Shown here: in pieces, positions 15,527-32,056 of the stretch
Numbering within the stretch: position 1 is the stretch's first letter
Layout: each line of letters starts with the position of its first letter
Assembly (NCBI GenBank): GCA_030835405.1
Contig: JAURPG010000106.1
Coordinates: 6,067-70,066 of the forward strand
Reading direction: 5' to 3'
Length of the DNA stretch: 64,000 bases
From: Gammaproteobacteria bacterium
Lineage (GTDB): Bacteria; Pseudomonadota; Gammaproteobacteria; Eutrophobiales; Eutrophobiaceae
The notes under the pieces: generated by a model
What the model saw: only the letters and a program-made list of their open reading frames with translations
Databases searched by the model: none
What the model was told of the DNA's origin: nothing
Program-made: the position numbers and the translations under genes

Positions 15527-16462
15527 TTGAAAACACATAATATTCTTGTCCTTTTGACTGCTTGTGCAATATTGTCCTTGTTCTTGCCAGATGTCGCCTA
15601 TGCCCAGGCAACGCAGAATCAGGCAGGCACATATATCGGCACCCAGGTTTGTTCGTCCTGCCACAATGACCTTTCAGATCACTGGTCCCATACAGTGCAT
15701 TCAAAGATTTTCATGAATAACCCGGGAAATGAAATTGAGCGCCGGGGCTGTGAATCATGCCATGGCCCCGGCTCAGAGCATATAATAGATCCAACGGCGG
15801 TGGATAAAATAATCAGGTTTTCCCAAAATGCACCAAGCCCAACCGGGGAACAGAATCGATCATGTCTCCAGTGTCATGCCGGCGGAAATCGAATCCACTG
15901 GTCAAGCTCAATACACGAAAGTAATGATTTGGCCTGCGCTGATTGTCATAACCCGATGGCAAACTTCTCCTCTGTTAATCTACTGGTGCAAAACAATATT
16001 AATGAGACCTGTTTCATGTGTCACAAGGAACAACGTAGCCAGTTTAACAGGCGATCACATATGCCGTTGAATGAAGGTAAAATGTCATGCACTGACTGCC
16101 ATAACCCCCATGGCAGTAATACGGATAGCCTGCTGAAAACTGATAATGTGAATCAGACCTGTTTTCAATGCCATGCGGAAAAAAGAGGTCCTTTCCTCTT
16201 TGAACATGCCCCGGTAACCGATAATTGCCTGAACTGCCATGAACCCCATGGTTCGAACCATGAAAAATTACTGCTTACAGCCCGCCCAATGTTATGTCAG
16301 CAGTGCCACACATCCATCGGGCATATGAATGACCTGTTTACATCAGGAAATCTTGCAACGGGTAGTCGCCCGGACATACGCCTAATTGGGAGAAGTTGCC
16401 AGAATTGTCATACGCAGATCCATGGATCCAACCATCCGGCAGGATCAAAATTCCAACGGTAG
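15527..16462 (+). CDS. Periplasmic decaheme c-type cytochrome of the MtrA/MtoA/PioA family
   Basis: Ten CxxCH haem-binding motifs are spread over 311 aa (CSSCH, CESCH, CLQCH, CADCH, CFMCH, CTDCH, CFQCH, CLNCH, CQQCH, CQNCH). A signal peptide is present. The apparent start codon is TTG. Confidence 0.8.
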   Translation: MKTHNILVLLTACAILSLFLPDVAYAQATQNQAGTYIGTQVCSSCHNDLSDHWSHTVHSKIFMNNPGNEIERRGCESCHGPGSEHIIDPTAVDKIIRFSQNAPSPTGEQNRSCLQCHAGGNRIHWSSSIHESNDLACADCHNPMANFSSVNLLVQNNINETCFMCHKEQRSQFNRRSHMPLNEGKMSCTDCHNPHGSNTDSLLKTDNVNQTCFQCHAEKRGPFLFEHAPVTDNCLNCHEPHGSNHEKLLLTARPMLCQQCHTSIGHMNDLFTSGNLATGSRPDIRLIGRSCQNCHTQIHGSNHPAGSKFQR

Positions 16463-16483
16463 TATCCATATCAAATTCATCAG

Positions 16484-18973
16484 ATGAAAATTAACGTCCA
16501 TATATGTAAATTTCCCATTCATGCATTGATATGTATTATTTTAACACCCGGGTTACTTCAATCTGCTGAGTTACCGGAAAGATCAAATCATCTCAATTCC
16601 GGGGTATCTTCGAAAGGGAGCCTGGTGGCAAAGAGTGACTTTAACAAGTTCCAGGAAAGATTAAGAACTCCCGGTGGTTTTCTGATACCCGATGCCCCTG
16701 AACAGCAGTCCTTAAAATCTGTCTCTGACAGTGAGTGGTTATATTCACTATCTATTAATGCCGGGTACATTAATGCTTCCGGTAATGAAAATTCTGCCCA
16801 GTTTAAAGAATACGGGGACTGGGATAATGGACTCGTTTTGAAACGATTTTCAGGTGTACTTGAAAATCCCGGGACTGCCCACTACTTCAAGTTAGGCGGT
16901 GGGAGTTTGGGCAGAAACGATCAGTTTTTGAATTTTTCTTCCGGTAAATATGGAAAATATAATTTTTCCCTGGCGTTTGATGCTACGCCTCATGATTTTG
17001 CAAATAATGCCCAGGTGCTTTGGGATGGCGCAGGAAGCAATATCCTTACATTGCCAGACGGCCTCGTCCCCGGAAACAGTACGGCAGCAGATGTCACTAT
17101 GGCGCTTCAGGTGATTGATGGTTCTGATATAAAACTTGAAAGGGACAAGCTCAGTGTTGCTTTTGACGTCGATTATCTACCAACTCTGAATTTCCATGCT
17201 GAGGGTTCTGTCGAATGGCGGGATGGTGGCAGGCCTATTGGTGGAGGATTTTCCTATCCTGGTTCCGGCCAGGTCACTGAAATAATTGAGGCGATAGATT
17301 ACACGACCTATGAAATCAATTTAGGTCTCGCATACAGCGGTACAGGCAGGCAGCTGAATTTTTCGTATACGGGATCCCTGTTCGTAAATAATTACAGCGC
17401 CCTGACGTGGGAAAATCCAGGCGTTTCACCGTTTACGGCATATGCACCGCGAAGGGGCCGTTATGCGCTTGCACCTGACAACGAGTTTCATAATTTTAGA
17501 GGTGATTTTGTAACCAAATTACCATTCTGGAATAGTAGGTTAACTGTAGTGTCATCGTATTCTATTTCAAGCCAGAATGATCTATTGATTCCTCCAACAA
17601 TCAGCTCTGGAACGATTACAAGCGGGCCCAGTACCATTAATCTCAATCTTTGGAATACGGTTGAGGCACTTTCCACAGACAGGGCCAATGCAGAAATAAG
17701 AAATTTGAATTTACAGTCAAGAATTATTTTAAACCCTGTCAGGAAAATAAGGTTAAGGGGCGAAGTAAAATATACTGATAGGGACAACAGGACAGATTAT
17801 ACAGCATTAAATCCACTTACCGGGGAGTATGGATATATTGTAATGGATGGTGGCCTGGATGCATTAGCACCATCCCTGACAGGTATTTATAATCCTTTAC
17901 GTCCGGGAAGCCGGGTCAGGTTTAAAAATATTCCTTTTGACAAAGACACATTCCTGATTACTGCAGGGGTGGATTACCTGGTGACCAATAAACTGAAGAT
18001 GGGTTTGAGATATTATCGGGACCATCAGGATTATCGTCACAGGGAAGTGGATAAACTAATCGAGGACAGAATTAAGCTTAACCTTGTTTATCGGGACCGT
18101 AAAATAGGCACGCTCAGGACGTCATATGAATACCGTGACAGGGATAGTGATGGTTATAATTTTAACCCGTACGAGGAATTCTATACTTCGTCGTTACCTG
18201 CTTATATACCTCGCCTTGCAGATGGCGATGATCCTCATACGTTGAGTGATTTGCGGAAGTATGACGTCGCAAGCAGAAAGAAACATACATTAAAAGGCAA
18301 ATACAATTCTATCATTGTTGAAAATCTTGATCTTACACTAACCGGTCAATATTCAGATGAAAATTTTGATGCACAGTATGGATTAAGGGAAAAAGATTCA
18401 TTATCTGCAAACCTGGATTTGAACGTATATATGGGTTTAAATAAAAGTATATATGCTTATTACTCATTTCAATCCAGCAAAAGTTATTATGCAAATATAA
18501 ATAATGCAGGCGGGGCATTTTCTGATCCATTTGCCGGTGGACCCCGGTATCCTCTGGATCGTGCGTGGACTGGAAGTGCGAGGGAAAAAAACAATAGCAT
18601 TGGGGCAGGGATTAATTTTGGTGTTGACGATGTATTAATTAATCTGAGTTATACGTACATCAGGTCCAGGTCCAGGTTTCAATATAATTTTAATTCAACT
18701 GCAGCTTTTAATAATACATTAACCGAACAGGAAGTTGGCACCGGGTTTCCCGACCAGATATTCAGCAATCATCACCTGCAATCAAACATAACGTGGTCGG
18801 TTCGAGAAAATACAAAACTGAATTTTCTCTACAGGTATGAGACTGAAAAAGTAAGTGATTTTCATTACCAGGGGATAACAAATTCTATTGTTGATGACTC
18901 AATTCTGTTGCTTGCCTTGCCGGAAAATTTTAATAGTCATGTGGTAGGGTTATTTATTGAGAACAATTTTTGA
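16484..18973 (+). CDS. Outer-membrane beta-barrel porin of the MtrB/MtoB/PioB family, sheath for the decaheme cytochrome
   Basis: It is 829 aa and lies 21 nt downstream of the decaheme gene. It has a signal peptide, the alternating hydrophobic/aromatic composition of beta-barrels rich in Y/N/G/S/T, and a C-terminal ...IENNF ending in an aromatic residue as outer-membrane proteins typically do. Confidence 0.65.
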   Translation: MKINVHICKFPIHALICIILTPGLLQSAELPERSNHLNSGVSSKGSLVAKSDFNKFQERLRTPGGFLIPDAPEQQSLKSVSDSEWLYSLSINAGYINASGNENSAQFKEYGDWDNGLVLKRFSGVLENPGTAHYFKLGGGSLGRNDQFLNFSSGKYGKYNFSLAFDATPHDFANNAQVLWDGAGSNILTLPDGLVPGNSTAADVTMALQVIDGSDIKLERDKLSVAFDVDYLPTLNFHAEGSVEWRDGGRPIGGGFSYPGSGQVTEIIEAIDYTTYEINLGLAYSGTGRQLNFSYTGSLFVNNYSALTWENPGVSPFTAYAPRRGRYALAPDNEFHNFRGDFVTKLPFWNSRLTVVSSYSISSQNDLLIPPTISSGTITSGPSTINLNLWNTVEALSTDRANAEIRNLNLQSRIILNPVRKIRLRGEVKYTDRDNRTDYTALNPLTGEYGYIVMDGGLDALAPSLTGIYNPLRPGSRVRFKNIPFDKDTFLITAGVDYLVTNKLKMGLRYYRDHQDYRHREVDKLIEDRIKLNLVYRDRKIGTLRTSYEYRDRDSDGYNFNPYEEFYTSSLPAYIPRLADGDDPHTLSDLRKYDVASRKKHTLKGKYNSIIVENLDLTLTGQYSDENFDAQYGLREKDSLSANLDLNVYMGLNKSIYAYYSFQSSKSYYANINNAGGAFSDPFAGGPRYPLDRAWTGSAREKNNSIGAGINFGVDDVLINLSYTYIRSRSRFQYNFNSTAAFNNTLTEQEVGTGFPDQIFSNHHLQSNITWSVRENTKLNFLYRYETEKVSDFHYQGITNSIVDDSILLLALPENFNSHVVGLFIENNF

Positions 18974-21181: not shown

Positions 21182-21333
21182 CCCCATCTATCTGGCAATA
21201 ATACCTTCAATACGACAAAAAGTTATGTAACTAACTGATTTCAATATAATTTGCCGGATTATGCATAAGGTTTTATACTCGGGTATATATGGTGCAGCTG
21301 TCACTATCAGGAAATCCAGGAGACACTTATCCA

Positions 21334-23760
21334 ATGCAAATGGTCATTCGGTTATTTATTTTATTTTTTCTCACATTTAGCGTTGTATGTAATTCACAAG
21401 ACAGAAATAGTGATCAGGCTGGAGATTTCGTAAGGTATGAAACCCTCGTCAGCCAGTATTGCGTAACCTGTCATAACGATACCTTACGCACAGCAGGGTT
21501 TTCACTTCAGCAGGCAGATCTCACCAATATGGGTGAATATGCCGAGACCTGGGAAAAAGTCCTGCGTAAGGTCAAGGTCAAGACCATGCCTCCATCAGGT
21601 ATGCCGCGGCCAGATGATGCTACTTATAAGGCCTTTGCTGATTTTCTCACCACCAGCCTTGATAGGCATGCTTTAGATAATCCAAGGCCAGGTGTTGCGG
21701 CAATTCGTCGCCTGAACCGTACCGAGTACTTCAACGCAATTCGTGACCTGCTGGCGGTTGAAATCAATGACAGTACTATCCTGCCCGCCGATGACACCAT
21801 GTACGGGTTTGACAATGTGGGAGCGGTTCTAACTTTATCACCCATGTTGACGGAGCAGTATATAACCGCAGCACGGAAAATCCGTTACCAGGCCCTGGGC
21901 CATCCGGATATGCCACCGGAGTTTTTTACCTACAATGCCCCAAGGTATTTAATGCAGGAAGACTGGGTCAGTGATGACCTGCCGTTTGGTTCACGGGGTG
22001 GGATGTCAATACAACATCATTTTCCCATGGATGGGGAATATGTCCTGCAGATCCGGTTACAAAAAAATTCCAGGGATTATATTCGTGGGTTGGTGCATAT
22101 TCCTCATGAAATAGATATCCGCCTGGATGACAAGCAAATCGCAAGGCTTTCAGTCGGTGGCGAAAAGTTTGGAAAATCATCGGGGATGTTTTCCTCCAGT
22201 GCCCAGGGGCACCCTGATCAGGAACAATATGAAAGATACAGTGATGAAGCATTGGAAGTTCGTTTCAATGCAAAGGCCGGCACAAGAAAAGTCTCCGTTG
22301 CATTTCTGAAGAAACTGGCCTTGCCTGAAGAGCCTTCATACAGCCAGATGTCTATCATTGATTATGCCCAGCTCAAGGCCGGAGTCCCCGGTATAGGCAC
22401 CATCAGGATAGGTGGTCCTTATAATTCCACGGTCTCAACGGAATCTGAGACGCATAAGAAGATATATGTCTGTACCCCCAGAAATGACAGGGACACAAAC
22501 TGCGCAGAAAAGATTATCTCCAACCTCGGCAGACTGGCTTATCGCCGGACGTTAACCCGTCTGGAGCTGGATGGGCTCATGGAATTTTTTCAGCAGGGCC
22601 AAAGGGCCGGCGGGTTTGACGAGGGCATTGGTCTTGCCATGGAAAGGATCCTGGCCGGGCCAAAATTCCTGTTTATCATCGAGCAGGCACCCGAAGAGGT
22701 CAATGAAGGTGATATCTTTGCTATCTCTGACCTGGAACTGGCGACCCGGTTGTCCTTGTTCCTGTGGAGCACCATGCCGGATGATGAATTGCTGAGCGTG
22801 GCGGAGTCCGGGCAACTGCGTAAATCACAAGTCCTCAAACAGCAAATTCTGCGCATGCTTGGCGACCCCCGTTCACGGACCTTGGTAAATAACTTCGCAG
22901 CGCAATGGCTGACGCTTGGCAGGCTGAATGCCTCTGCACCTAATGGCGAGATATTCCCTTATTTTGACGATAATCTGAGGCAGGCCTACCGTACGGAAAC
23001 GGAGATGTTTTTTGATTACGTATTTCGAAACGACAGGCCACTACTGGAATTGCTTGATGCAGATTACACCTTTGTAAACGAAAGGTTGGCAAAGCATTAT
23101 GGTATTCCTGATGTGTTTGGCAATCATTTTAGAATGGTGGAGTTAACAGATGGTACCCGTGGGGGCTTGCTGGGACAGGGCAGTATCCTGACGGTGACGT
23201 CCTATGGGAATCGAACCGCACCTACCATACGCGGTAAATGGATCCTGGAAAACATACTGGGGGCACCACCGCCACCGCCACCAGCCAATGTCCCGGGGCT
23301 GCTGGATAAGAATGACGAAGGGAAGGTGCTGAATATGCGCCAGCAAATGGAACAGCACCGGGCAAATCCCGTGTGTGCCAGTTGCCACAAGGTCATGGAT
23401 CCCCTGGGTTTTGCGCTGGAAAATTACGATGCCATTGGTAAATGGCGTACCATAGATGCCGCTTCCAAAGAACCGATTGATGCCTCCGGGGCGTTGCCCG
23501 ATGGCACGCCATTTATTGGCTTGGCAGGCCTTAAGGAAGTATTAATGGAGAAGCGCCAGTATGATTTTATCATGACCGCCATTGAAAGAATGCTAACTTA
23601 CTCGCTTGGAAGGGGAATAGATCACCGGGATGCCCCCGCCATGCGCGAAATTATGAGACAGGCAGAACCGGACAATTATCGATTATCTTCTATAATTATG
23701 GCAATCATTGAGAGTATGCCATTTCAGATGAGGAGGGCACCTAGCCATGATGATATTTAA
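21334..23760 (+). CDS. Large secreted DUF1592/DUF1595/DUF1587/DUF1588-type protein with an N-terminal c-type haem (PSCyt-like) domain
   Basis: There is a signal peptide (MQMVIRLFILFFLTFSVVC), then CVTCHND (CxxCH) and a second CASCH. The roughly 800 aa length and the immediately following DUF1552 partner fit this Planctomycete-type pair. Confidence 0.6.
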   Translation: MQMVIRLFILFFLTFSVVCNSQDRNSDQAGDFVRYETLVSQYCVTCHNDTLRTAGFSLQQADLTNMGEYAETWEKVLRKVKVKTMPPSGMPRPDDATYKAFADFLTTSLDRHALDNPRPGVAAIRRLNRTEYFNAIRDLLAVEINDSTILPADDTMYGFDNVGAVLTLSPMLTEQYITAARKIRYQALGHPDMPPEFFTYNAPRYLMQEDWVSDDLPFGSRGGMSIQHHFPMDGEYVLQIRLQKNSRDYIRGLVHIPHEIDIRLDDKQIARLSVGGEKFGKSSGMFSSSAQGHPDQEQYERYSDEALEVRFNAKAGTRKVSVAFLKKLALPEEPSYSQMSIIDYAQLKAGVPGIGTIRIGGPYNSTVSTESETHKKIYVCTPRNDRDTNCAEKIISNLGRLAYRRTLTRLELDGLMEFFQQGQRAGGFDEGIGLAMERILAGPKFLFIIEQAPEEVNEGDIFAISDLELATRLSLFLWSTMPDDELLSVAESGQLRKSQVLKQQILRMLGDPRSRTLVNNFAAQWLTLGRLNASAPNGEIFPYFDDNLRQAYRTETEMFFDYVFRNDRPLLELLDADYTFVNERLAKHYGIPDVFGNHFRMVELTDGTRGGLLGQGSILTVTSYGNRTAPTIRGKWILENILGAPPPPPPANVPGLLDKNDEGKVLNMRQQMEQHRANPVCASCHKVMDPLGFALENYDAIGKWRTIDAASKEPIDASGALPDGTPFIGLAGLKEVLMEKRQYDFIMTAIERMLTYSLGRGIDHRDAPAMREIMRQAEPDNYRLSSIIMAIIESMPFQMRRAPSHDDI

Positions 23761-25090
23761 AAAATCCATTCCACGCAGAACGTTCCTACGCGGGGCCGGC
23801 GCAAGCATTGCCTTGCCAGTACTTGACGCCATGTTTCCGGCACTGGCTTCAACAAAGGCAGCAATGGAGGTCCCCAGACGGTTTTCCATTGTTTATATCC
23901 CCAATGGGGTCAACATGGCCCATTGGACGCCAAAGCAAACCGGTAAATCATTCGAGATCACACGTGCTATCAAACCATTGGCCAGTTACCAGGACAAGAT
24001 GCTGATGTTGACTGGTCTCAGTAATACACCAGGTGATGCATTACCAGGTGAAGGTGAAACCGCACCCCATGAACGGGCGGGCGGGGTTTTTCTTACCGGA
24101 GTCCATCCCTTAAATGAAGGTCGCACAGGCGTATCTATTGACCAGATCATTGCCCGGGAACTGGGCAAAAAGACCCAGTTGGCCTCCCTGGAAATGGGGC
24201 TGCATACCAAGGATGTGATTGGAAATTGTGAAAAAGGCTGGAGCTGCGCCTATTTGAGTACGCTTTCCTGGCGAACGCCAACCACCCCGATGCCTATGGA
24301 ATACCGTCCCCGTGCTGTTTTCGAACGGCTTTTTGGTGGCAGTAGTAGTACTGACAGGGGCGCACGCATGGAGCGCATAAACAAGGAAAAAAGTATCCTT
24401 GATGATATTACCCGTGAGGCCCGGCAAATGATGAATTCATATGGGCCAAACGACAAGGCCAGATTAACTGAATACCTGGACGGGATGCGTGACGTTGAAC
24501 GACGGATTCAATTGGCAGAACAACAATCTTCCCGTGAATTGCCAACGATGGAACGTCCATCAGGGGTACCTAATGATTTTGTCGATCACCTGAAATTGAT
24601 GTTTGACCTTCAGGTCCTGGCATTCCAGACAGACATGACCCGCATGATTACCTTCATGACGGCACCGGAACAGAATAACCGCACTTATGGGCAGATCGGC
24701 GTGCCCGATGTACACCATTCTGTTTCCCATCACCGGGATGATCCCTCTAACCTGGAAAAATTAGCCAGGATCGATGAGTACCATTCCCAACTGTTCAGCT
24801 ATTACCTGGACAAGTTGCATAATACCCAAGATGTTGACGGATCTTTACTGGACAATATGATCGTTATGTATGGCGCGGGAATGAGTGATGGTAATCAACA
24901 CCTGCTACATAATCTGCCTATCATGCTGGTAGGGGGTGGTTCCGGACAACTTAAAGGCGGCCGGCACATCAAGTACAAGTTAGATACACCCATGTCGAAT
25001 TTATATCTTTCCATTCTGGACAAGCTGGATATCCCGCTTGAGAAGTTTGGAGACTCCACGGGTAAATTAAATCTTGCGGCAACGGCATAA
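23747..25090 (+). CDS. DUF1552 family protein with a Tat signal
   Basis: The N-terminus is IPRRTFLRGAGASIALPVLDAMFP, the canonical DUF1552 start with a twin-arginine motif. It overlaps the upstream gene by 14 nt. Confidence 0.7.
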   Translation: MMIFKKSIPRRTFLRGAGASIALPVLDAMFPALASTKAAMEVPRRFSIVYIPNGVNMAHWTPKQTGKSFEITRAIKPLASYQDKMLMLTGLSNTPGDALPGEGETAPHERAGGVFLTGVHPLNEGRTGVSIDQIIARELGKKTQLASLEMGLHTKDVIGNCEKGWSCAYLSTLSWRTPTTPMPMEYRPRAVFERLFGGSSSTDRGARMERINKEKSILDDITREARQMMNSYGPNDKARLTEYLDGMRDVERRIQLAEQQSSRELPTMERPSGVPNDFVDHLKLMFDLQVLAFQTDMTRMITFMTAPEQNNRTYGQIGVPDVHHSVSHHRDDPSNLEKLARIDEYHSQLFSYYLDKLHNTQDVDGSLLDNMIVMYGAGMSDGNQHLLHNLPIMLVGGGSGQLKGGRHIKYKLDTPMSNLYLSILDKLDIPLEKFGDSTGKLNLAATA

Positions 25091-25117: not shown

Positions 25118-26677
25118 TTGAAACAGGAATTTATTAATGGGTTATTTAGACTCGTTCTTATTTCACTTCTGGTATTTTCAAGCCATGTATCAGCAGGCAC
25201 GTCGCTGGTCGAGTCTGCCAAACTCAATGACCTGGCAAGTGTAAAGGCCTTACTGACAAACGGTGTGGATGCAAACTCGAGCAATGCTGATGGTTCGACG
25301 GCGCTGCATTGGGCGGTATTACGTAATAACGACGAGATGGTCGATAGCCTGATTTCGGCCGGGGCCAATCCGAACCCAGCCAACGAATACGGCGCTACAC
25401 CGCTCTGGCTGGCCTGCAACAATAAAAGTGATGAAATGATCCAGCGGTTACTGGATGCCGGTGCCGATCCCAATGCATCCATGTGGTCTGGCGAATCACC
25501 GTTAATGAAATGTTCCCTGACAGGTGCAACCAATGCGGTCGCGGCACTACTGAAGGCAGGTGCCTATGTTGATGCAGTCGAATCCGTCCAGGGGCAGTCC
25601 GCATTGATGTGGGCGGCAGCTAAAGGACATTCGGATGTTGTCAGATTACTGATTGATAATGGTGCAGATATCTCTGTAAAAACCATTGCGACAGCCGACA
25701 AGCTGCCGCATTCCTGTAATACGTGTGAATGGAAAAAATCCAGTGGTGGATTTACGCCATTACTATTTGCTGCAAGGTCTGGGGATATTGCAACCATCCG
25801 TTTATTCATGGAGGCCGGTGCCGATCCCAATGAATCAACGCTTGAACATGGTAATTCTCTGGTTATTGCGGCGGCAGGCGGGCATTACGATTTAGCCCTG
25901 TTCCTGTTACAAATGGGGGCCGACCCTGATTCAAGTGACGATACCGGGTTGACAGCACTGCATCATGCCGTGGGCGGTGGACTGGCATTATTAAATGGTG
26001 TCATATATGACGGTGTGTACCGGATCCAACCAGAAAATGATCTGGAGCTTGCCAGGGCATTGCTTGATGCTGGTGCCAACGTCAATGCACAAATCAGGCA
26101 GGATCATTTACTGGGGCCGGACGGGACGCCTTTCAGCATGACAGGGGCAACACCCTTACTTCTGGCCGCGACATCGGCTGATGTTGATATGATTGGTTTA
26201 CTGAAAAAATATGGCGCAGACCCGAGTTTGAGTGCCAAAGGCAATGTGACACCGCTGATGGCCTCTGCCCAGGCCGCCTGTACCGGTACCTGCGCCTACC
26301 AGGAGGGTGGTAATGTCGCCAATACGGAGGCGGTGCAACAAGCATACCGTGCGACAAAGGCTATTTATGAAATGGGTGGTATAGATATTGATGCCACCAA
26401 TAATACAGGTAGAACGGCGTTGCATATCGCGGCTTTTACCGGTTCGGACATCGTCGTCCAGTATCTGGCTGAGAAGGGTGCCGATGTAAACCGCAAAGAT
26501 AATCGTGGTGAAACGCCCTGGACCATGGCATCAGGAATGACAACCAATATTGGTAGCCGGGGGTTATATGGCCACCATGACAGTACTGCAGAGTTACTAT
26601 TAAAGCTTGGCGCCAAGGTCATTACCATGGAGCAACTGGAAGAAGACACCCCGCCATATGCTGGTGCCGGCCTTTAA
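25118..26677 (+). CDS. Secreted ankyrin-repeat protein
   Basis: A signal peptide is followed by multiple ANK repeats (GSTALHWAVLRNNDEMVDSLISAGANPN, GATPLWLACNN..., GQSALMWAAAKGHSDVVRLLIDNGADI, and others). Confidence 0.8.
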   Translation: MKQEFINGLFRLVLISLLVFSSHVSAGTSLVESAKLNDLASVKALLTNGVDANSSNADGSTALHWAVLRNNDEMVDSLISAGANPNPANEYGATPLWLACNNKSDEMIQRLLDAGADPNASMWSGESPLMKCSLTGATNAVAALLKAGAYVDAVESVQGQSALMWAAAKGHSDVVRLLIDNGADISVKTIATADKLPHSCNTCEWKKSSGGFTPLLFAARSGDIATIRLFMEAGADPNESTLEHGNSLVIAAAGGHYDLALFLLQMGADPDSSDDTGLTALHHAVGGGLALLNGVIYDGVYRIQPENDLELARALLDAGANVNAQIRQDHLLGPDGTPFSMTGATPLLLAATSADVDMIGLLKKYGADPSLSAKGNVTPLMASAQAACTGTCAYQEGGNVANTEAVQQAYRATKAIYEMGGIDIDATNNTGRTALHIAAFTGSDIVVQYLAEKGADVNRKDNRGETPWTMASGMTTNIGSRGLYGHHDSTAELLLKLGAKVITMEQLEEDTPPYAGAGL

Positions 26678-26942
26678 AATTAATTTACTTTTTTTTCTTC
26701 TACTGTCTACTGCGGTCATTCCGGTTGCCAGCCAGATAACTGATAACGCCCAGCAGGCCAAAGTCAAATCCAGACAGCTTGCTCCCGCCCAGTATGAGGT
26801 CACCTGTTTTGAATCTGCTGAATATTGTGCTGAGGAATTCAAACGCTTATGTCCAGGTGGACACAGGGTTGGTGGCTATTTCAGGAATCAGTTTGACCAT
26901 GGCCAGATTACAGCGGTGATTACCTGTCAGGAAAACAATTGA
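26658..26942 (+). CDS. Small secreted four-cysteine protein
   Basis: The frame is open from 26607. A Sec-type signal peptide runs from the Met at 26658 (MLVPAFKINLLFFLLLSTAVIPVASQ). The mature region of about 69 aa has four Cys (C-x6-C-x7-C-x28-C). Confidence 0.45.
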   Translation: MLVPAFKINLLFFLLLSTAVIPVASQITDNAQQAKVKSRQLAPAQYEVTCFESAEYCAEEFKRLCPGGHRVGGYFRNQFDHGQITAVITCQENN

Positions 26943-28133: not shown

Positions 28134-28454
28134 ATGAGTGGAAATTTAACTGCCTGGATTGGTATTTTGGTCGGTTGGCCATTTGTGATTGTTGGGATGA
28201 TCCTGTCAATCCTTGCAATTATTAAAACCGCGCCACGGACATTTTTTTTAGCCGCCATTTTCTTTTTGCCGATGAGTTTTTATCTGTCGGGTTCCAATTC
28301 CTGGATGGGAAAATCTGCAATGCTGATATTGCCAGTGACCTTGTTATGCTGGTACACGTTAAACAAGGGTTTTATTAAAACCACCATCATGCTTATTTCA
28401 TCAATACTTATCTATTATTCCTATATCGGTTATGTAGTTGTATTGTCCTCTTAA
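28134..28454 (+). CDS. Small hypothetical membrane protein
   Basis: It is 106 aa with three predicted TM segments and nothing else recognisable. Confidence 0.4.
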   Translation: MSGNLTAWIGILVGWPFVIVGMILSILAIIKTAPRTFFLAAIFFLPMSFYLSGSNSWMGKSAMLILPVTLLCWYTLNKGFIKTTIMLISSILIYYSYIGYVVVLSS

Positions 28455-28590: not shown

Positions 28591-30120
28591 ATGAGTGTCG
28601 GTCGTCGTGACTTTTTAAAGTTGGTGGCCGGAGTAGGTGCCACGCAATCAATTTCATTAGTATCAACTCCCAGTTTATTTGCCCAGTCATTGCCCGCTGA
28701 GATTACCGCCATGACTGCTTCACAGTTATCTATTGCGATTAGATCCAGGCAGGTGAGTTGTGTGGAAGTTATGCAAGCCTATCTCGATAGAATTCATAAA
28801 ATAAACCCTGTCTATAATGTTATTGTCAGCATGGTAGAAGATGATTTGCTCATCGAGCAGGCGAGATTTGCAGACCAGGCGTTGAGTAAGGAAGAATACT
28901 GGGGCTGGATGCATGGTATGCCCCATGCGGTGAAAGACCTGGCCAATGCCCGGGGGCTTGAGACCAGTTATGGATCACCTTTATTTGCCGGCACGATTGC
29001 AGAAAATGATGATATTCATGTCTCGCGCATCCGTGGTCAGGGGGCCATCTTTATTGGTAAGACCAATGTCCCGGAATTCGGGCTGGGGTCTCAGTCCTAT
29101 AATACTGTTCATGGAACAACAAAAAATGCCTATAACCCTGCACTGACCTCCGGTGGAAGCAGTGGTGGTGCTGCATCTGGCATGGCATTACAGGTACTAC
29201 CCACCGCAGATGGAAGTGACATGATGGGTTCCCTTAGAAATCCAGCAGGATTTAATAATGTGGTGGGTTTCAGACCCAGCCAGGGTCGAGTACCAGCAAC
29301 ACCCAGTGATCTCTTTTATCATCAATTATCAGTCAATGGCCCCATGGGCCGGAATGTGGAAGATACCATCCGGTTGTTAAATACCATTGCCGGTTTCGAT
29401 GCAAGATCGCCATTAAGTCTCAAGGATACTATTCCGGATTATGAATCCTTCAGAAAGTCACATTTTCTTGATTATCGAATTGGCTGGATGGGTAATTATG
29501 AAGGATACCTGGCAACTGAACCTGGTGTGATTGATATATGTGAACGGGCATTAGCGCGACTGGATCAGTTTGGAGTCATTGTAGAAAATTGTCAGCCGGA
29601 ATATGACATGGCCAGGCTCTGGCAGACATGGCTCACTTTCAGGCACTGGTCACAGACAGGACGGCAGGCGCAGTACCATGATCCACAAATAAAAAGGCAG
29701 TTTAAACCGGAACTGGTCTGGGAGATTGAAGGGAGTTTTGATATTTCAGGTGAGCGACTTTCCAGGGCCGCGGTAGACCGTGCTGACTGGTATCGGGCAT
29801 TGCATAAATTGTTCCAGAAATACGATATCCTGGCACTACCCAGTGCACAGGTCTTTCCATTCGATGCAGATATTCATTGGCCGAAAGCCATTAATGGCAG
29901 GACCATGGACACTTACCATCGTTGGATGGAGGTGGTGATTGGAGGTACATTGGCCGGATTGCCAGTGGTCAGCTTGCCAGCTGGTTTTAATAACGAAGGC
30001 AAGCCAATGGGGATCCAGTTTATCGGCAGGATGGGCAAGGACCAAGAGGTCCTGGAGTTTGCCATGGCCTATGATGTAGTAACTGATTACTTACAGGTAC
30101 GGCCTGATATTCAGGCCTAA
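28591..30120 (+). CDS. Amidase-signature family amidase with a Tat signal peptide
   Basis: The twin-arginine motif is MSVGRRDFLKLVAGVGA. The amidase signature GGSSGGAAS is present, as is the catalytic Ser/Lys context. Size is 509 aa. Confidence 0.8.
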   Translation: MSVGRRDFLKLVAGVGATQSISLVSTPSLFAQSLPAEITAMTASQLSIAIRSRQVSCVEVMQAYLDRIHKINPVYNVIVSMVEDDLLIEQARFADQALSKEEYWGWMHGMPHAVKDLANARGLETSYGSPLFAGTIAENDDIHVSRIRGQGAIFIGKTNVPEFGLGSQSYNTVHGTTKNAYNPALTSGGSSGGAASGMALQVLPTADGSDMMGSLRNPAGFNNVVGFRPSQGRVPATPSDLFYHQLSVNGPMGRNVEDTIRLLNTIAGFDARSPLSLKDTIPDYESFRKSHFLDYRIGWMGNYEGYLATEPGVIDICERALARLDQFGVIVENCQPEYDMARLWQTWLTFRHWSQTGRQAQYHDPQIKRQFKPELVWEIEGSFDISGERLSRAAVDRADWYRALHKLFQKYDILALPSAQVFPFDADIHWPKAINGRTMDTYHRWMEVVIGGTLAGLPVVSLPAGFNNEGKPMGIQFIGRMGKDQEVLEFAMAYDVVTDYLQVRPDIQA

Positions 30121-30150
30121 AGAATTATACTCAGGATATGAATAGTCAGA

Positions 30151-31044
30151 ATGGGTGAGCATATCCCTCAACTTCCTGTTCTGGGTATTGGGGCCAGTCT
30201 GAGCTTATCGGCAAAGCCGGACCCGGTATCCCTTGTCAACAAAAAACACGGTCCCAGTTTTGTTGAGTATGCAGGATTGGCCGATGTTGATCAGGTGATC
30301 GATGAAGTCACCCGCATTAGGAAAACTGGCAAGCCGGTACTTTTTCATCCGTCATATATTAATTTTTGTGGTTCCTACCCAAATTCTGAGCACTGGCTCA
30401 AGGCAACTGCCCGGCATATCGAACAGGTGGGGTCACCCTGGTTTGCCCAGGACTGTGCCTATTGTTTCTGGGAAGAGGGTCATGGATATTCCAGTCAGTT
30501 TGGCTATTTTATTCCACCCATTCTGAACAAAGCCTCACTCGCCCGGGCCATTGACCGGGTCAAGGAGGTGCAGGACCTGGTGCCGGTAACCGTGGCAATA
30601 GAGCCGCCGCCAGTTTCATTCGTGTTGGGTTCAATCCCGGTATTTTCATTTTTTGGCGAGATTGCAGATGCTGCAGACTGCGCATTATTGCTGGATATGG
30701 GGCACCTGGTTTCCTATGAGATGGCAAGCGGAATAGCCGTAACGGATTCACTTTCAGAGCTGCCAGTAGAGAGGGTAATAGAAGTCCACGTAGCCGGTGG
30801 TCGAATCAAACAGGGTGAATCCGGCCCCATCTATGTGGATGCCCATGAATGTCAGATCCAGCAGGTAACCTGGGAGATGCTGGACAGGATGCTTCCTCAC
30901 CTGCCTAATGTGAAAGCAGTATGTTTTGAGTGTGAAGGGGTGGATGAAAAAACAGTCATGTCCACTTTGAAACGCATCCGCAACCAGGTCAGGGCCAGTA
31001 GTAGTAATGCGGCATTAATATCCATACTGGATCAAATGCAATGA
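30151..31044 (+). CDS. DUF692 / multinuclear non-haem iron-dependent oxidative enzyme (MNIO; MbnB/HvfB/BufB family)
   Basis: It has a TIM-barrel-like pattern with blocks that align to UPF0276/DUF692 proteins I recall: WFAQDCAYCF, VTVAIEPPPVSF, CALLLDMGHL, EVHVAGG...YVDAHE and CFECEGVDE. Size is 297 aa. Confidence 0.7.
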   Translation: MGEHIPQLPVLGIGASLSLSAKPDPVSLVNKKHGPSFVEYAGLADVDQVIDEVTRIRKTGKPVLFHPSYINFCGSYPNSEHWLKATARHIEQVGSPWFAQDCAYCFWEEGHGYSSQFGYFIPPILNKASLARAIDRVKEVQDLVPVTVAIEPPPVSFVLGSIPVFSFFGEIADAADCALLLDMGHLVSYEMASGIAVTDSLSELPVERVIEVHVAGGRIKQGESGPIYVDAHECQIQQVTWEMLDRMLPHLPNVKAVCFECEGVDEKTVMSTLKRIRNQVRASSSNAALISILDQMQ

Positions 31045-31958
31045 GTTTTGCTGAACAGGAAAGGGCGTTATTTGATCTGTTATTCGATGGGCGCGTCAGG
31101 GACAGGTTTTCTCAGGATTCAAATGCAGCCCTTGCTGAATATGACCTTGATGAAGATGAACGACAGGATTTTTCAGTATTGCGTCAAGATGCGCTTGAAG
31201 TTGATGCCTGTATCCGGGTTAACCTGGTGATGTCCCAATTGTGTCGTTCATATCCTATTAGTTTCAGTATCCTGTCATCAATAAACAATGGTATTGAACT
31301 GTTAAAAAGTCTAGTCGATGTGACCACCATGCGTTCACCTCATGTCGATAGGCCTGTGGTTTATGGTAAACGCCTGGGTAATGAGTTGGTGCAGTGTGCA
31401 TTTAATTCAAATAAAGAAAAACAATTATTATCAGCTATATTACAACTGGAACTGGGTATGGCATGGACCGCATCCAGTTTAAAACGAGTCGTGATTGAAA
31501 GGGGTGAGCAAGCAGATACGGACTCCGGCTTAGTGGATGACTGGGCAGACAGGCCGGTTACCCTGGCGGAATTTGTGACCGCCGGGTTGTTGCCATTGTC
31601 TTATAAAAAGATCAAACGGCGTCTTTGCCCGGTATCTGATAATGAATTATGGCGGTCCCTGACACGTACACCTACATCTTCATCAACATTAAAATCACTG
31701 CTTTCAAGAGATGATCCAAGGTTGTTGGTCTCAAGGGCAAAGATTGAGCATATGTCATTCTGCGAGCCCACCGTATCCCATCAGACGACCGAATTAAGTG
31801 AAGGTTTTGCCCCACTGTTCCAGCATGTCAATGGCAAAGTGAGCGTGAATGCATTGCTGGCTAATTTAAAACAGTCAGGTGCAGACGATAGTCTGCTCAA
31901 AAGTGTTAAATCCGGATTCGAGCAGCTATTAACCAATGGTATGTTACTGACTACTTGA
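31041..31958 (+). CDS. DUF2063-like partner protein (HvfC/BufC-like), translationally coupled to the MNIO gene
   Basis: ATGA overlaps the MNIO stop. The N-terminus MSFAEQERALFDLLFD... matches the pattern of DUF2063 partners of DUF692. Size is 305 aa. Confidence 0.5.
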   Translation: MSFAEQERALFDLLFDGRVRDRFSQDSNAALAEYDLDEDERQDFSVLRQDALEVDACIRVNLVMSQLCRSYPISFSILSSINNGIELLKSLVDVTTMRSPHVDRPVVYGKRLGNELVQCAFNSNKEKQLLSAILQLELGMAWTASSLKRVVIERGEQADTDSGLVDDWADRPVTLAEFVTAGLLPLSYKKIKRRLCPVSDNELWRSLTRTPTSSSTLKSLLSRDDPRLLVSRAKIEHMSFCEPTVSHQTTELSEGFAPLFQHVNGKVSVNALLANLKQSGADDSLLKSVKSGFEQLLTNGMLLTT

Positions 31959-31969
31959 TGATATAAATA

Positions 31970-32056
31970 TGGTGCCGGGAAAGGGAATCGAACCCCCACT
32001 CAGTTGCCTGAACCGGATTTTGAATCCGGCGCGTCTACCAGTTCCGCCACCCCGGC
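31970..32056 (-). tRNA. leuX: tRNA-Leu(CAA), class II tRNA with a long variable arm
   Basis: The reverse complement reads GCCGGGGTGGCGGAACTGGTAGACGCGCCGGATTCAAAATCCGGTTCAGGCAACTGAGTGGGGGTTCGATTCCCTTTCCCGGCACCA. The anticodon stem-loop is CCGGA-TTCAAAA-TCCGG with anticodon CAA. GTTCGATTC is the T-loop, and there is a 3' CCA. Confidence 0.9.

Follow-up and report, generated by a model that had tools for sequence, protein, structure and literature searches.

The enzymology of the MNIO (DUF692/UPF0276) oxidases has progressed almost wholly through substrates encoded by neighbouring genes. The cluster of the Pseudomonas syringae 3-thiaglutamate (pearlin) enzymes TglHI (8hci, 8hi7) includes a scaffold peptide, TglA, and a PEARL, the aminoacyl-tRNA-dependent ligase TglB. 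In the aminopyruvatide system of Burkholderia, ApyHI is composed of an MNIO and a type 2 RRE partner and modifies a non-Cys residue of a signal-less peptide; its neighbours are the ApyA precursor, a B12-rSAM, a methyltransferase and a P450. The BufBC, HvfBC and MmrBC pairs (bufferins, H. influenzae HvfA and bulbicupramide, respectively) have a Sec-signal Cys-rich precursor immediately upstream, a Pfam DUF2063 partner and canonical metal ligands, and the bufferin/Hvf systems often have DoxX nearby. MbnBC, of the methanobactin pathway, is accompanied by MbnA and transport genes. According to a recent survey, the characterised MNIOs all act on peptides or proteins; bona fide DUF2063 partners accompany precursors that have a signal peptide, and signal-less precursors come with 'PME-type 2' partners, defined as resembling NGO1945/TglI structurally while lacking the DUF2063 signature (Antoine et al., 2025, PMC12452194). 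The same survey reports bufferin precursor genes unlinked to MNIO genes, as well as many minor MNIO groups having no identifiable precursor.

The locus studied here lies in a 64-kb window, by which we mean the whole stretch of DNA analysed. The oxidase gene (30151..31044, plus strand) encodes a 297-aa protein devoid of signal peptide. Residues 53-260 match PF05114 (MbnB_TglH_ChrH) with an E-value of 1.5e-23 and 83.9 bits (gathering cut-off, 25 bits), so that the assignment to the DUF692/UPF0276 MNIO superfamily made in the original prediction holds. Using phmmer, TglH and 3bww were retrieved with E-values of 2.4e-8 and 6.5e-7. A Foldseek search with an AF2 model (pLDDT 85.9) gave TglH as the top match (E 4e-14), together with 3bww and MbnB (E 4e-14 to 2e-11; TM 0.67-0.78), and endonuclease IV and sugar epimerases ranked below these. 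The modelled fold is a xylose-isomerase-like TIM barrel nearest to the solved MNIOs. At the level of functional subfamilies, the scores were far under the NCBIfam equivalog cut-offs of BufB, HvfB, ApyH, ChrH and MbnB. ApyH ranked first (96.6 bits versus a cut-off of 400), BufB second (71.2 versus 310) and HvfB third (58.9 versus 360); MbnB scored 35.8 versus 325.

The predicted metal site departs from the canonical one. In TglH, the iron ligands are H71, H107, E151, D184, H216 and E258, with D184, N187, D229 and H231 at Fe3 (PMC10880893). The corresponding residues of the 297-aa protein are H66, D101, E151, D182, H185, H213, D230, H232 and E260. Seven of these nine positions are identical in the two proteins. 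The second Fe1 histidine (H107) is replaced by D101 and the Fe3 asparagine (N187) by H185. In an alignment of 37 homologues the nine positions are all invariant, the two replacements included, among 113 invariant columns. The two exchanged ligands covary among relatives, the set HDEDHHDHE being counted 65 times against 32 for the canonical HHEDNHDHE. Besides, TglH Asn73, the proposed orienter of the substrate Cys, falls at Ser68 when positioned by motif register, not by alignment with TglH. Because the site is unlike the canonical one, the chemistry may differ from the Cys-to-thiooxazole/oxazolone reactions of the bufferin, Hvf and Mbn enzymes. The changed ligand set could signal another metal or another class of substrate.

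The partner gene (31041..31958, plus strand) starts within the end of the oxidase gene. The ATGA overlap (31041..31044, caaATGcaATGAgtt), already pointed out in the original prediction and read directly from the sequence, implies translational coupling. In the 305-aa partner, a flexible loop (155-171) connects an N-terminal helical DUF2063/TglI-like domain (residues ~1-155) to a C-terminal RRE-type winged-helix domain (~172-305). The latter has a complete RRE fold and contains the most conserved stretch of the protein, ELSEGFAPLFQHVNG. The earlier description of this partner as DUF2063-like is correct for the fold only, since PF09836 (DUF2063) did not match it, even at E<=10. The NCBIfam partner models gave no match at the same threshold either, a profile of the partner family found zero matches among PDB sequences, and none of the 120 homologues listed is recorded with a Pfam domain. 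Encoded directly 3' of the MNIO, with a fold related to NGO1945 (3dee) and TglI (8hi7), the protein therefore belongs with 'PME-type 2' rather than with 'PME-type 1' (DUF2063 partner, PF09836), as these types are described in the survey (Antoine et al., 2025, PMC12452194).

Association of the two genes is strict. The partner is found directly 3' of the MNIO in 79 of 82 loci, that is, in every locus allowing a judgement. In the nearest outgroups, which show 41-43% identity, an MNIO and a partner are fused into one chain of 611-646 aa, the C-terminal half of which aligns with the partner profile (hhalign probability 97%, E 3e-11); a metagenome scan with the partner domain of the fusions returned one locus only. 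Gene order, these fusions and the analogy with TglHI and MbnBC suggest that the two proteins form a complex.

The pair was found in about 77 species-level genomes (at least 77). Both ORFs are intact, and no frameshift of the pair was seen in relatives. Identities to the clade in which the pair adjoins tgt amount to 64-71% for the MNIO, 65-68% for Tgt, 55-58% for QueA and 53-60% for YajC; in conservation, the MNIO roughly equals Tgt. The surroundings, read over 8 kb on either side of each homologue, vary by clade and include tgt, 5-oxoprolinase, alcohol dehydrogenase, HemC, UDG and acetoacetyl-CoA synthetase genes. An all-against-all clustering of 8,255 ORFs (>=30 aa) from 78 loci revealed no third gene family around the pair beyond lineage synteny: the recurrent clusters corresponded either to such synteny (tgt, queA, yajC, secDF) or to common families (acyl-CoA synthetases, SDRs). 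About a third of the gaps flanking the pair are too short for a gene, 21 of 62 upstream and 23 of 64 downstream being at most 100 nt long.

In the window, the gene preceding the pair on the same strand (28591-30120) encodes a 509-aa amidase (PF01425, 277 bits; NCBIfam PRK07486, 689 bits) with an N-terminal RRDFLK twin-arginine motif, and is separated from the MNIO start by 30 nt, in agreement with the initial description of a Tat-signal amidase at this place. A weak sigma-70-like site (CTGATA-16-TATACT, 30104..30131, plus strand) extends across the stop codon of the amidase gene into the 30-nt gap. This site, which a consensus scan did not find enriched over shuffled sequences, might serve as a promoter of the pair itself. 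The tgt clade has a conserved TTGATG-N17-TAGAAC element in the corresponding position, immediately ahead of the MNIO start. On the other side, a tRNA-Leu(CAA) gene (31970-32056, minus strand) lies 11 nt past the partner stop codon, as originally noted. The accompanying proposal that the pair belongs to a block acquired at this tRNA finds no support. No integrase occurs among the flanking genes tested, the 26-mer of the tRNA 3' end occurs once only in the window, and the entire gene order is common to the closest relative (L006). Moreover, tRNA-Leu-queA is conserved in L006, L007, L009, L011 and L024, and tRNA-Leu(CAA)-queA-tgt is kept in related lineages whatever the position of the pair. The tRNA-Leu/queA/tgt setting is an ancestral synteny and no island.

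A precursor was searched for in the 64-kb window and around the pair in the related loci. In agreement with the original prediction, the gap between amidase and MNIO contains no precursor-like ORF, and no canonical precursor stands directly upstream, where the amidase is found instead. None was detected in the intergenic parts of the window either. Two out-of-frame ORFs overlapping the amidase 3' end (29780-29938 and 29939-30079) were considered as hidden precursors and discarded, as they carry stop codons in the closest relatives L006 and/or L007. A 111-aa four-Cys secreted protein (26607-26942), considered as a precursor, and a 106-aa membrane protein (28134-28454), considered as DoxX, were also rejected: they have no family match, are conserved in the window's own lineage only and are two or three genes distant from the pair. 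Among the small ORFs (>=22 aa) situated up to 1.5 kb from the pair in all loci, none was seen to recur, motifs being judged by eye. Genes for DoxX, sigma/anti-sigma factors or precursors are absent from the window and from all 77 loci. In the tgt clade, the tgt-to-MNIO and partner-to-yajC intergenic regions contain promoter-like elements only, and Rfam yielded tRNAs only, with no riboswitch or RNA leader. The outgroup fusions have heterogeneous contexts in which no precursor was found beside them. Single, non-recurrent cases were a Cys-rich lipoprotein 3' of the fusion in L083, an ACP-like gene in L089 and, in the pair's own clade, a Met/His/Cys-rich lipoprotein in L062 and a small cytochrome c in L029. 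Since no gene for a modified peptide is found beside the pair, its target is likely to be encoded elsewhere. Thus, among the possibilities raised originally, that of an orphan pair acting in trans fits best.

Altogether, it seems probable that the pair is a conserved cytoplasmic MNIO-partner enzyme whose substrate is encoded in trans, and that it is neither a bufferin/Hvf system nor an amidase maturase. Within such an enzyme, the MNIO would be the O2-activating multi-iron TIM-barrel half of a cytoplasmic heteromer, to which we ascribe an oxidase activity by deduction. The RRE-type domain of the partner, of TglI/DUF2063 fold, would present a peptide or protein substrate to the MNIO. Because no substrate was found, we infer its nature and its location in trans from the MNIO family and the RRE fold; the pair would then act on a peptide or protein whose gene lies at another place in the genome. 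As to the amidase, the tRNA and queA-tgt, these would be neighbours of the pair and not components. What sets the pair apart from the MNIO systems characterised so far is that it forms a conserved module of two genes, complete in itself, with no substrate gene alongside.

The known systems provide the nearest points of comparison. Sequence identity to TglHI is low, the MNIO sharing 17-19% and the partner 10%, and neither a scaffold peptide nor a PEARL is found near the pair. ApyHI supplies the best-scoring NCBIfam model, yet the score is far under the equivalog cut-off, the pair lacks the neighbours of ApyHI listed above, and no radical-SAM or methyltransferase family appears among the recurrent or adjacent neighbours examined. 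MbnA and the transport genes of MbnBC are likewise missing. With BufBC, HvfBC and MmrBC, the pair shares the MNIO-then-partner order and the two-domain DUF2063-like plus RRE fold; it has none of their other characteristics. The original prediction had likened the pair to the Cys-modifying systems of the Hvf/bufferin type. As one of these, it would convert Cys residues of an unlinked Sec-exported DUF2282, BUF_6/12Cys or EGKCG precursor to thiooxazoles for copper handling. The second and third ranks of BufB and HvfB, as well as the unlinked bufferin precursor genes mentioned above, are compatible with this idea. However, the two scores are far below their cut-offs, and the partner does not carry the DUF2063 signature that accompanies signal-peptide precursors. 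At Fe1, the iron to which the thiolate of the substrate Cys is bound in MbnB, Asp replaces one of the two His ligands, and the loci are devoid of DoxX, sigma/anti-sigma and precursor genes. Such a function is thus quite improbable. The amidase had also been considered, as a protein matured or modified by the pair in the cytoplasm before export, or as a member of a common pathway. Tat substrates fold in the cytoplasm, the amidase gene and the pair are only 30 nt apart on the same strand, and in L024 the pair is followed at ~0.5 kb by the gene of a 50%-identical amidase. Nevertheless, over the 77 loci, this proximity is limited to the window, L006 and L007 (a single clade) and to L024 with its other arrangement. 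The amidase is missing at the other ~70 loci, and the pair retains 60-87% identity with or without it. Adding the promoter-like site that separates the amidase from the pair, a link between them is very unlikely. A role in tRNA/queuosine metabolism or Sec translocation, suggested by the queA-tgt-yajC-secDF locus, is likewise very unlikely. In 14-16 loci the pair does have tgt on one side and yajC on the other; in the window clade tRNA-Leu-queA lies immediately downstream of it, L024 has queA-tgt in its vicinity, and in L073, L074 and L075 it is closely preceded by tRNA genes. Yet the tgt-yajC arrangement represents a single monophyletic clade in which the pair and yajC each keep their own promoter-like element, and about 40 other loci are without such neighbours.

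Two further explanations take the missing precursor at face value. A decaying RiPP cluster remnant, having lost its precursor, can scarcely be reconciled with ORFs kept intact in 77 species, with the 113 invariant MNIO columns that include all ligand positions, and with strict pairing complemented by fused forms. Alternatively, the enzyme may oxidise a non-peptide small molecule, the RRE-like domain, which could be vestigial, being structural only. The lack of any precursor near the pair, its housekeeping-level conservation, a fold common to sugar epimerases and endonuclease IV and the changed ligand set speak for this; the peptide or protein substrates of all characterised MNIOs (Antoine et al., 2025, PMC12452194) and the complete RRE fold of the partner, whose most conserved stretch is in that domain, speak against it, and we regard it as unlikely. 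Returning to an enzyme acting in trans on a peptide or protein, a more specific version can be tentatively put forward. The pair and its fused relatives might constitute a housekeeping-type protein-modifying enzyme, in which a variant-site MNIO oxidises a conserved cellular protein encoded elsewhere, possibly at a non-Cys residue, rather than a natural-product maturase. This would explain the absence of a precursor, the Tgt-level conservation and the residence among core genes.

The usual shortcut from a neighbouring gene to the substrate fails for this clade of at least 77 species, with its single-chain fusions as sister groups and its systematically different metal site. The substrate, if found, would point either to a RiPP with genome-dispersed genes or to an extension of MNIO chemistry to ordinary cellular proteins. 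Fluviicoccus keumensis DSM 105135 and Agitococcus lubricus DSM 5822 are cultured carriers, which makes the question testable. In the accessible parts of the survey by Antoine et al. (2025, PMC12452194), neither genus was found in the supplements, nor was the clade found named there, and stand-alone pairs or precursor-less MNIO-partner fusions were not found in the main text. In annotation, a bufferin/Hvf cluster label should be avoided for 'DUF692 + hypothetical protein' at loci of this kind. A self-modified C-terminus of the partner was also considered and discarded, as the C-terminal residues are not conserved. Finally, Cys241 of the partner, within an SxCEP motif, is invariant in the partner family and missing from the fusions.

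The pair comprises an MNIO gene (30151-31044, 297 aa) and a partner gene (31041-31958, 305 aa), both on the plus strand in a listing of mechanically called ORFs and joined by an ATGA overlap read from the sequence (caaATGcaATGAgtt). Thirty nucleotides separate the MNIO start from the stop of a 509-aa amidase gene in the same direction (28591-30120). The amidase scores 277 bits against PF01425 and 689 against the NCBIfam PRK07486 subfamily (cut-off 465), and its N-terminus, MSVGRRDFLK, carries a textbook twin-arginine motif. One tRNA-Leu(CAA) gene (ARAGORN and Rfam) occupies 31970-32056 of the minus strand, 11 nt past the partner stop, with queA, tgt, yajC, secD and secF downstream. The coordinates and gene description of the original prediction are thus right. 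Public records name the window proteins only "DUF692 family protein" or leave them nameless.

The assignment of the 297-aa protein to the MNIO/DUF692 family is confirmed by its match to PF05114 (83.9 bits, gathering score 25). Its AF2 model (pLDDT 85.9) is closest to TglH, to 3bww, a DUF692 protein of H. somnus, and to MbnB; endonuclease IV and the sugar epimerases rank next, as expected in the TIM-barrel superfamily of MNIOs. The protein is outside all named subfamilies tested: it scores 96.6 bits against the ApyH model (cut-off 400), 71.2 against BufB (310), 58.9 against HvfB (360), 36.7 against ChrH (600) and 35.8 against MbnB (325). A loop at residues 106-122 (window 30256-30516), WEEGxGYSSQxGYFIPP, is strongly conserved yet modelled with pLDDT 44-58. 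It is an insertion relative to TglH, directly after the strand bearing D101, and may be a mobile active-site lid.

In TglH, Fe1 and Fe2 are bound by H71, H107, E151, D184, H216 and E258, and Fe3 by D184, N187, D229 and H231 (PMC10880893). Phmmer alignments to TglH and 3bww place H66, D101, E151, D182, H185, H213, D230, H232 and E260 of the window MNIO at these positions, all nine invariant among 37 aligned homologues. The canonical residue is kept at seven positions; at the other two, Asp replaces His107 and His replaces Asn187 (TglH numbering). The two swaps covary among the best 150 cluster representatives of MNIO-related proteins (P0241-P0390): of the about 120 that could be aligned, 65 carry the window-type signature H-D-E-D-H-H-D-H-E and 32 the canonical H-H-E-D-N-H-D-H-E. 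Many carriers of the former are single-chain proteins of 470-650 aa. Since the site 1 iron of MbnB, ligated by two histidines, is where the thiolate of the substrate cysteine binds (bioRxiv 10.64898/2026.07.17.739211), the systematic swap there hints at a different chemistry.

The partner matches no Pfam or NCBIfam model; its sole Pfam trace is a sub-threshold LigA match (residues 15-42), and its family profile has no match among PDB sequences. The proposed match to DUF2063, the absence of which had been named in advance as refuting the original prediction, fails by sequence, PF09836 giving no match even at E≤10, but the protein is structurally DUF2063/TglI-like. It is exactly the "PME-type 2" partner of Antoine et al., described as having a DUF2063/TglI-like structure and an RRE domain without a Pfam signature (PMC12452194). 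An exhaustive search of representatives showed that the nearest relatives beyond the clade include proteins of 611-646 aa (41-43% identity) whose N-terminal half is an MNIO and whose C-terminal half matches the partner profile (hhalign probability 97%, E 3e-11). These natural fusions favour a physical complex of MNIO and partner, by analogy with TglHI and MbnBC.

Scanning one genome for each species gave 77 distinct loci with the MNIO at 53-87% identity, almost all of them gammaproteobacterial. The closest is from Ca. Eutrophobius brisbanensis (87%); others are from Fluviicoccus, Agitococcus and further Moraxellaceae, "Thiotrichaceae" UBA groups and Pseudomonadales MAGs. Six loci carry the label Polyangiales, Myxococcaceae, Planctomycetota or Deltaproteobacteria (L040, L050, L054, L069, L010, L077). 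Their proteins are 53-69% identical to gammaproteobacterial ones, and the labels could reflect mis-binning, mislabelling or horizontal transfer. In 79 of 82 loci the partner is the next gene after the MNIO; contig ends interrupt the remaining three. Within 8 kb on either side, the surrounding genes otherwise vary from locus to locus, immediate neighbours including Tgt, 5-oxoprolinase, zinc alcohol dehydrogenase, HemC, acetoacetyl-CoA synthetase, a family-4 uracil-DNA glycosylase and a TfoX-like protein.

The original prediction that no precursor adjoins the pair is borne out by the window and by related loci. The search covered peptides of at least about 20 aa within 8 kb on either side in each relative and in the 64 kb of the window. 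The gap to the next ORF of at least 120 aa is at most 100 nt upstream in 21 of 62 cases and downstream in 23 of 64, and there is therefore no space for a gene there. Clustering of all ORFs of at least 30 aa from 78 loci gave no extra family except lineage synteny; none of the intergenic ORFs of at least 22 aa lying up to 1.5 kb from the pair was recurrent, and the intergenic parts of the window held no precursor-like ORF. Of the two ORFs within the amidase 3' end, neither is intact in both L006 and L007, the closest relatives of the window locus. The fusions lie among unrelated genes with no evident precursor, as do two remoter relatives of 477-560 aa. Small neighbours of the pair or fused enzyme include a 113-aa acidic Cys-rich lipoprotein (L083, 2452-2793), an ACP-like protein (L089, 3101-3406; PF00550, 23.8 bits), a 96-aa Met/His/Cys-rich lipoprotein (L062, 9930-10220) and a small CxxCH cytochrome (L029, 460-750). 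Each is an isolated case that occurs in one locus only.

The best-supported reading, which agrees with the orphan acting in trans considered originally, is that of a cytoplasmic MNIO-partner enzyme whose substrate is encoded in trans; the pair would be conserved as an autonomous module of two genes, or of one when fused. The substrate may be a conserved cellular protein, and a small molecule, though less likely than the best-supported reading, may also serve. The architecture resembles that of TglHI and ApyHI, but the pair belongs to neither, nor to the bufferin/Hvf systems to which it had been likened, because the defining features of all these systems that were tested, namely equivalog scores, precursor and accessory genes, were lacking in the regions searched. 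Also less likely as substrate is a bufferin precursor encoded at another genomic site. In the survey by Antoine et al., Sec-signal bufferin-type precursors accompany bona fide DUF2063 partners and type 2 partners accompany signal-peptide-less precursors; many minor MNIO groups have no identifiable precursor, and assigning groups without small ORFs is called hazardous (PMC12452194). Searches of its text and supplement turned up neither the window clade nor stand-alone pairs lacking a precursor, nor fusions of MNIO and partner. In Microbulbifer, the obligately conserved cluster differs from the window pair in being a canonical EGKCG-precursor/MNIO/DUF2063 operon (PMC12538549).

Maturation of the amidase, suggested by its adjacency, is less likely: the amidase gene is upstream of the pair only in the window clade (the window locus, L006 and L007), while L024 has an amidase of 50% identity on the downstream side. 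A link to tRNA or Sec function is likewise less probable. The tgt-yajC arrangement forms a single monophyletic clade in a neighbour-joining tree; in the window clade and L024 the pair also lies near queA-tgt, though arranged differently, and interspersed clades lack this proximity. It looks like inherited synteny with no functional link. Decay to a remnant is less likely too; between the window and the queA-tgt-MNIO-partner-yajC clade, MNIO identity (64-71%) is close to that of Tgt (65-68%), and the oxidase is thus constrained like a core tRNA-modification enzyme. Corresponding values are 55-58% for QueA, 53-60% for YajC and 49-53% for the partner. Nor is there support for the pair being part of an acquired block at the tRNA, as had been thought probable: an antisense tRNA-Leu(CAA) immediately before queA is kept in L006, L007, L009, L011 and L024 independently of the place of the pair, the 3' end of the tRNA is not repeated in the window, no integrase occurs among the flanking genes tested, and GC is about 0.44-0.51 over the pair and about 0.44 in the flanking queA-tgt region.

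In L007, a 3.3-kb insert encoding two polytopic membrane proteins separates partner and tRNA, and the MNIO of L073, L074 and L075 is closely preceded by two tRNA genes. The tgt-to-MNIO spacer of ten loci (L009, L011, L015, L017, L018, L026, L041, L042, L049, L078) contains a conserved promoter-like TTGATG-N17-TAGAAC ending some 12 nt upstream of the MNIO ATG. With this spacing and no obvious Shine-Dalgarno motif after it, the mRNA may therefore be nearly leaderless. Elsewhere in the window, an MtrA-like multihaem cytochrome with paired CXXCH motifs followed by an MtrB/PioB-type outer-membrane porin (15527-18973) is a predicted extracellular-electron-transfer module of the porin-cytochrome kind. 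At 21289-25090, a DUF1592/DUF1588-family protein that includes a cytochrome c domain is paired with a DUF1552 (HXXSHH) protein. They are followed at 25118-26942 by a 519-aa signal-peptide ankyrin-repeat protein, overlapped by a 111-aa four-Cys secreted protein; these two are conserved in L006 and L007 only.
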